DNA from: a bacterium
Lineage (GTDB): Bacteria; Babelota; Babeliae; Babelales; JABGSX01
Length of the DNA: 64,000 bases
Direction: 5' to 3'
Assembly (NCBI GenBank): GCA_018647505.1
Contig: JABGSX010000006.1
Coordinates: 245 to 64,244, forward strand
In this document: in pieces, positions 16,401 to 16,656 of the stretch
Numbering within the stretch: the first letter of the stretch is position 1
Layout: each line of letters starts with the position of its first letter
Position numbers and translations under genes: made by a program
The notes under the pieces: generated by a model
What the model saw: only the letters and a program-made list of their open reading frames with translations
Told to the model about the DNA's origin: nothing
Database searches by the model: none

Positions 16401-16656
16401 ATATATACTGTTTATATGGCTACTAAAATTTATTCTTTAACATCTTCTTATTAACGAAAATGAGATCGTCCTTATCGGATTATCCGGGGAACCGGAATTC
16501 TGTAAACAATACCAGAAAAAAAATCAATTCAAGATCATTTTGGCACATTTGAACCATAGTTGGAGCAAAGAATCCATAAAAGACAAATGCCCACACTTAT
16601 TCTGATAATCGATTCGATATAATTTTTTTAAAAACATTAAGCAGTTTACAAAAAAC
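16401..16656 (+). pseudogene. tilS: Degraded duplicate of the tilS promoter/5' end plus a mid-gene tilS fragment (duplication scar)
   Basis: 16401-16588 aligns by eye with 18509-18716, with two small deletions. The first 38 nt differ at 2 positions. 16590-16656 aligns with tilS 19143-19199. The reading frame collapses after MATKIYSLTSSY. Confidence 0.8.

Follow-up and report, generated by a model that had tools for sequence, protein, structure and literature searches.

A degraded tilS copy between two tandem paralogs of a Babeliales bacterium that has diverged less than the paralogs on either side of it

The spacer between two adjacent genes of a tandem paralog array (p3 and p4) in an uncultured member of the Candidatus Babeliales (Dependentiae) holds a degraded copy of the 5′ part of tilS, the gene on the far side of p4. 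The copy has diverged from tilS far less than the two paralogs have diverged from each other, and on these distances it appears to be about ten times younger than p3 and p4. We think it probable, though far from certain, that the fragment comes from a secondary, comparatively recent partial duplication, which would have occurred long after p3 and p4 had separated and would have been followed by neutral decay. The case carries a caution for the reading of tandem arrays: a gene fragment between tandem paralogs resembles a duplication scar, yet the clocks disagree here by an order of magnitude, and without an estimate of dS the mismatch in age would pass for fast adaptive evolution of the paralogs.

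The array, tilS and its copy

Four tandem paralogs (p1 to p4) lie on the minus strand of the window, the whole stretch of 64,000 nt that was analyzed, and tilS is divergent from them, 53 nt from p4 (Table 1). Each paralog encodes a signal-peptide-like N terminus, TPR repeats, a class I methyltransferase domain and an uncharacterized C-terminal region. The C-terminal ~200 aa of these proteins had no match in Pfam or PDB, and a PDB sequence search with the C-terminal half of p4 returned nothing significant (E = 0.24). The closest relative of p4 anywhere is p3 (52%). No full-length homologue of the p4 family was found outside this genome; elsewhere only proteins of ~350 aa, a few of them from named Babeliales, match the methyltransferase/C-terminal half of p4, at no more than 43% identity. 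The family therefore offers neither an outgroup for dating nor a donor that could have overwritten p3. A literature search on TPR paralog arrays in Dependentiae gave nothing relevant.

Table 1. Features of the paralog array, the tilS copy and tilS, in window coordinates
Feature	Coordinates	Strand	Matching tilS region	Remarks
Paralog 1	10975-12828	-		older member of tandem array
Paralog 2	12837-14525	-		older member of tandem array
Paralog 3 (608 aa)	14546-16372	-		signal-peptide-like N terminus, TPR, class I methyltransferase, C-terminal region of unknown function
p3 leader, 28 nt	16373-16400	-		RBS AAGGGAG; not homologous to p4/tilS spacer
Block 1	16401-16438	+	18507-18544	15 nt upstream of tilS and codons 1-8; 36/38 identical
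Block 2	16439-16495	+	18553-18609	after 8-nt deletion; 51/57 identical
1-nt insertion	16496	+		between blocks 2 and 3
Block 3	16497-16503	+	18610-18616	7/7 identical
Block 4	16504-16587	+	18636-18719	after 19-nt deletion; 73/84 identical
13-nt island	16588-16600	+	18893-18905	probable; 11/13 identical; shuffle p = 0.034
Block 5	16601-16656	+	19143-19198	distal end of copied tilS; 49/56 identical
Paralog 4 (603 aa)	16657-18468	-		architecture as paralog 3
p4/tilS divergent spacer, 53 nt	18469-18521			(TA)n tract; only last 15 nt present in fragment
Intact tilS (323 aa)	18522-19493	+		fragment source; PF01171 E = 4e-46; TIGR02432 169.7 bits vs cutoff 93.6

The gene next to the array, tilS, is an essential tRNA-modification gene and encodes the tRNA(Ile)-lysidine synthetase TilS. 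The protein of the window is of a short, Babeliales-type form (~320 aa) that scores above the family thresholds and has more than 1000 homologues of equal length; among 1096 TilS homologues, those that carry names belong to Candidatus Babeliales. The nearest TilS proteins outside this organism share 57% and 52% aa identity with it, and in place of the array their loci carry an unrelated upstream gene or gyrB. A scan of genome contigs with TilS peptides for more distant relatives found nothing. The stop of tilS and the first codon of the ORF that follows it (19493-20179, 228 aa; no match in Pfam or NCBIfam) overlap at 19490-19496, which suggests that the two may be translationally coupled. The region before the tilS start (18488-18524; 16382-16418 at the copy) is without a Shine-Dalgarno-like sequence, and a -10-like TATACT, also kept in the fragment, ends 7 nt before the ATG, which suggests a leaderless or near-leaderless tilS mRNA.

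Within the array, the p1/p2 and p2/p3 spacers measure 8 and 20 nt and hold no remnants, and the p3/p4 spacer measures 284 nt. The latter consists of the 28-nt p3 leader (16373-16400) and a 256-nt degraded, same-strand copy of tilS (16401-16656), which reaches from 15 nt upstream of the ATG to coding nt 677 (18507-19198). Because the other spacers are 8 and 20 nt long, the 28 nt to the left of the fragment look like an original p4-p3 spacer to which the fragment was added, and the leader is probably this ancestral short operon spacer.

Formal alignment of the fragment with tilS gave six collinear blocks, with 28 mismatches over 255 aligned nt (89.0% identity), or 26 mismatches over 242 nt (89.3%) when a 13-nt island is left out. 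Relative to tilS, the fragment carries deletions of 8, 19, ~173 and ~237 nt and a 1-nt insertion. In a BLASTN search of the spacer against the window, the match to tilS reached E = 8e-50 and 5e-15, and TBLASTN with TilS recovered the fragment at E = 6e-17, so the match lies far beyond chance. The coordinates given in an initial annotation of this DNA proved to be off by a few bases only, and the two differences that it reported in the first 38 nt were confirmed. The internal deletion of tilS, which it had put at ~430 nt, amounts to 423 nt (~410 nt if the island is not counted as lost) and probably represents two deletions (~173 and 237 nt) with the island as a leftover between them.

Both ends of the copy are sharply placed. 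On the left, the copy begins inside the p4/tilS spacer, within its (TA)n tract, and the ATG is retained at 16416-16418. On the right, homology stops at 16656, immediately before the TAG stop of p4 (16657-16659), in agreement with the initial annotation; at this join (16656/16657), an internal position of tilS (19198) abuts the p4 stop and is joined to the 3′ end of p4, with a possible microhomology (CCnAAT, reaching 16661) of at most 5 nt. The alignment thereby supports the earlier description of a duplicated, pseudogenized 5′ fragment of tilS whose right end is joined to the 3′ end of p4. The fragment is covered by contigs from five other ENA metagenome assemblies that are 100% identical across it, and an error of assembly is thereby excluded. 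These contigs carry the exact TilS and p3 proteins, as does one JGI contig.

In contrast to the intact gene, the fragment is unable to encode TilS. The 8- and 19-nt deletions and the 1-nt insertion shift its reading frame, the PP-loop motif SGGxDS is destroyed (blocks 2 and 3; G28E, at a glycine that is invariant in 59 TilS homologues), and deletions have removed ~63% of its original ~692 nt. The invariant R59 (block 4) and the conserved N215 are missing as well, and all three of these residues are retained in tilS itself. What remains of the tilS frame is 12 codons followed by a stop (counted by eye; below the 20-aa floor of the ORF listing), and the ORFs found in the fragment on either strand are chance ORFs of 20 to 38 aa. 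A search of 16200-18700 against Rfam gave no match at E <= 1. The mismatches are distributed over the three codon positions as 10:6:10, with 76:77:74 aligned sites, and this absence of a third-position bias argues against purifying selection on the fragment. Transitions account for 21 of the 26 mismatches, and at 11 sites a G in tilS stands against an A in the fragment. Homology to an intact gene, lost coding capacity and the lack of third-position bias are the marks of a pseudogene, and from its sequence the fragment appears to be an ordinary, non-functional piece of tilS in decay, with no evident functional significance.

Age of the fragment and of the flanking paralogs

Divergence from tilS is even along the fragment. 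The five main blocks are homogeneous in identity, at 87 to 95% (chi-square p = 0.61), and the outermost 20 nt at both edges are 90% identical to tilS, with 87 to 89% in the interior. For edges of the same age as the paralogs, 36 identities in 40 positions would have a binomial probability of 3e-9. The whole fragment thus appears to be of one age. Outside it, identity drops abruptly at 16400/16401, from 95% to chance: comparison of the p3 leader with 18469-18506 revealed no homology, with 297 of 500 shuffles scoring as high, and over their first 50 codons p3 and p4 share 44% nucleotide identity, which is the chance level. A chimeric origin of p3/p4 through unequal crossover was considered and rejected; the 5′ end of p3 is the least p4-like part of the gene.

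The paralogs on either side have diverged much further. Although p3 and p4 are the most similar pair in the array, they share only 52.7% protein identity and 60.6% nucleotide identity. The estimate in the initial annotation that their N-terminal halves differ at about every second residue is borne out in outline: in 50-codon windows, identity is 26 to 54% over the N-terminal ~250 codons and climbs to 52 to 80% in the C-terminal half. Synonymous sites of the pair are saturated, with an NG86 dS of 1.84, a dN of 0.42 and a nominal dN/dS of 0.23; owing to saturation, YN00 and LWL85 gave no p3/p4 dS. The F81 distance at 4-fold sites is 1.55, with a wide interval because it lies at saturation (bootstrap 95% CI 0.94 to infinity; 90 shared sites), and identity at these 90 sites is 39% versus 32% expected from composition. 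Third positions are 45% identical, versus a random expectation of 32%, and in 50-codon windows they range from 36 to 58% along the gene (40 to 60% in the conserved C-terminal half).

Against this background, the distance between the fragment and tilS is 0.117 substitutions per site (CI 0.074-0.167), which is ~13-fold lower than the p3/p4 distance; even between the interval limits that lie closest together, the factor is about 6 or more. The observation that the fragment is better conserved than the paralogs around it therefore holds as a measured contrast, and the outcome that had been proposed to overturn it, a divergence of the fragment equal to or greater than the synonymous divergence of the paralogs, did not occur. 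The same contrast tells against the initial interpretation of the fragment as the scar of the p3/p4 duplication: the paralogs are saturated at synonymous sites, the divergence of the fragment from its source is not comparable to theirs, and homology does not run on through the spacer into the 5′ ends of the paralogs. Of 74 third codon positions in tilS, 64 still have the same base in the fragment (binomial p = 1.5e-13 versus the 45% of the paralogs), so the split of fragment and tilS must itself be recent, whatever constraint may have acted on the fragment.

The age contrast could be avoided if the fragment were as old as the paralogs and the latter had diverged unusually fast under diversifying selection, as the initial annotation had proposed. 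The far greater divergence of the N-terminal TPR halves (26 to 54% versus 52 to 80% identity) points in that direction and could fit a secreted, host-facing protein of an intracellular bacterium. Diversifying selection raises dN, however, and not dS, and it is the synonymous and 4-fold sites that are saturated, along the whole gene and in the conserved C-terminal half as well; nor does the nominal dN/dS (0.42/1.84) carry a signal of positive selection. These values refute accelerated divergence of the paralogs as it was proposed, and we give next to no credence to a common age of fragment and paralogs reached in this way.

Alternatively, the fragment may have been kept and conserved for a function, as a promoter or 5′ leader of p3 or as an antisense to the tilS translation start. 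The ~75 nt upstream of p4 on the minus strand do recur at nearly equal distance upstream of p3, the block nearest to p3 (block 1) is the best conserved (95%), no terminator-like site was seen on the minus strand of the fragment, and the 19-nt deletion has brought about a minus-strand TTTACA-16-GATAAT at 16506-16479, ~105 nt upstream of p3. Promoter-like matches are nevertheless at chance in this AT-rich region (25 versus 20.8 +/- 4.7 expected), the conservation of block 1 is not significantly above that of the rest (Fisher p = 0.39), and a promoter needs ~50 nt rather than 256. A terminator scan of the region gave results at chance level. Moreover, constraint on the fragment cannot account for identity at the synonymous sites of tilS, and a role as p3 promoter, suggested in the initial annotation as the reason for maintenance, cannot keep the third positions of tilS matching. 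Regulatory use would explain the retention of the fragment and not its origin or its apparent age, which makes it an add-on to other models and not an alternative to them, and we regard it as distinctly improbable. Very improbable, in our judgment, is the more elaborate version in which the fragment, as a second p4/tilS divergent control region set before p3, has been recruited as a regulatory module that provides p3-p2-p1 with a promoter of their own and couples them to tilS by antisense. If that were true, a read-through transcript from p4 to p3 would carry ~250 nt antisense to the translation-initiation region of tilS, with 89% complementarity, and the expression of an essential tRNA-modification enzyme would be coupled to an effector-like gene array.

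Gene conversion and the origin of the fragment

Similarity between an old fragment and its source could also have been renewed by gene conversion, a process that is at work in the array. A 65-nt tract on the minus strand is 63/65 identical between p2 (13330-13394) and p4 (17168-17232), two paralogs that are not adjacent; the equivalent in p3 (15063-15127) differs from the tract at 20 to 21 sites, synonymous ones included, and the score of the p2/p4 tract was reached in none of 2000 permutations. The stretch at 17168-17232 is a short gene-conversion tract with its partner in p2, and conversion does occur in the array. One of the other contigs, L012, shows three differences, near its ends, of which two lie in the p2/p4 tract and carry p2 bases at 17191 and 17211; this contig ends inside the tract, and its p2 bases are probably an assembly-graph switch.

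An ancient tandem duplication of a paralog together with the 5′ part of tilS would, on this account, have produced p3, p4 and the fragment in one event, and repeated conversion of the fragment by tilS would have kept it similar since. The topology is that expected from a single event, with the most similar pair of the array (52.7%) flanking the fragment, the position of the join, at the p4 stop, is the one that a tandem duplication would give, and the p2/p4 tract indicates that conversion in the array acts between sequences only ~75% identical. The pattern within the fragment speaks against it. The last conversion would have to have spanned the entire ~690 nt to both edges, before all four deletions, yet the only conversion tract seen is 65 nt long and the blocks are homogeneous; the edges of homology show no gradient of identity; and there has been no spill into the adjacent 5′ ends of p3 and p4, which stand at chance identity. 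The four deletions have also gone unrepaired: 63% of the sequence has been lost, and not restored, per 0.117 substitutions per site, and survival over a period at least 6 to 13 times longer would need frequent conversion, which is at odds with a long interval without repair. The proposal in the initial annotation that conversion homogenized the scar is therefore right about a process that is real in the array and poor in its fit to this fragment, and we consider an ancient, converted scar unlikely, if still worth weighing. In bacteria, tufA/tufB and the rRNA operons are examples of duplicated sequences that evolve in concert through gene conversion. The locus resembles these systems in that a duplicated segment has kept its similarity amid diverging surroundings, and in the short p2/p4 conversion tract. 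It differs from them in that what is conserved is a dead fragment whose deletions have not been repaired, and in the uniform divergence of 11% without an edge gradient.

A recent partial duplication would account for the fragment as follows, and we infer the order and mechanism of the events from the breakpoints. At the start, p4, p3, p2 and p1 would already have formed a tightly packed, probably co-transcribed array next to the divergent tilS. Illegitimate recombination with only 3 to 5 nt of microhomology would then have fused the 3′ end of p4 with tilS at coding nt 677-682. By one route, p4, the spacer and the first ~680 nt of tilS would have been duplicated in tandem, and in a second step a deletion of ~1.85 kb, from within the short p4-p3 spacer on the left to the (TA)n tract of the p4/tilS spacer on the right, would have removed the redundant upstream copy of p4. 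By the other, the segment of tilS from -15 to +677 would have been copied into the p4/p3 spacer by double template switching. Afterward, the orphan fragment would have evolved neutrally, through deletions and through G-to-A-biased substitutions at all codon positions. The sequence itself does not separate the two routes. We slightly favor the first, since both of its steps are common events in bacteria, although it needs two breakpoints within one ~30-nt spacer; the second needs a mechanism that is rarely documented in bacteria.

Tandem duplications with join points are documented in bacteria as products of microhomology-mediated illegitimate recombination (PMC11111574). The fragment is like the pseudogenes found at such join points in being a truncated copy of a gene that spans one duplication endpoint, in its join to the other endpoint through a microhomology of a few bases and in its later decay by deletions and AT-biased substitutions. 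Unlike them, it is not accompanied by the expected extra copy of p4, so that a second step or an insertion by template switching has to be assumed, and its neighbors are old paralogs, for which it mimics their own scar. Under this origin, the array would be still rearranging, in a reduced Babeliales genome, through a secondary duplication, rapid deletion of the copied sequence and gene conversion over short tracts. The fragment would also provide a rough internal yardstick of deletion bias: over 0.12 substitutions per site, a neutral piece of 692 nt has shed ~63% of its length.

Other features of the window

Directly upstream of the paralog array, at 8281-10884 on the minus strand, lies a trio of genes for a DUF35-type zf-ChsH2/OB protein, a thiolase and an HMG-CoA-synthase-like protein, an order that we take to resemble the archaeal-type thiolase/HMGCS/DUF35 arrangement. 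A tandem family of small proteins occupies 27307-29276 (minus strand), and its members have almost the same signal peptide (MKRILI..A.LACVAQASA) but differ in their mature parts; within this cluster, a GC-rich palindrome, AAAAAGGCGACCGC...GCGGTCGCCTTTTT, has copies at 27665-27702 and 28632-28669. Tandem repeat arrays with 33-nt (seven copies) and 63-nt (four copies) units lie at 62930-63938, presumably in a repeat-containing coding region. Strand asymmetry is strong and uniform across the window (1-64000), with 33.8% A, 29.8% T, 21.6% C and 14.8% G. The GC skew is between -0.07 and -0.27 in every 4-kb bin and shows no switch, and the whole window therefore lies on one replichore.
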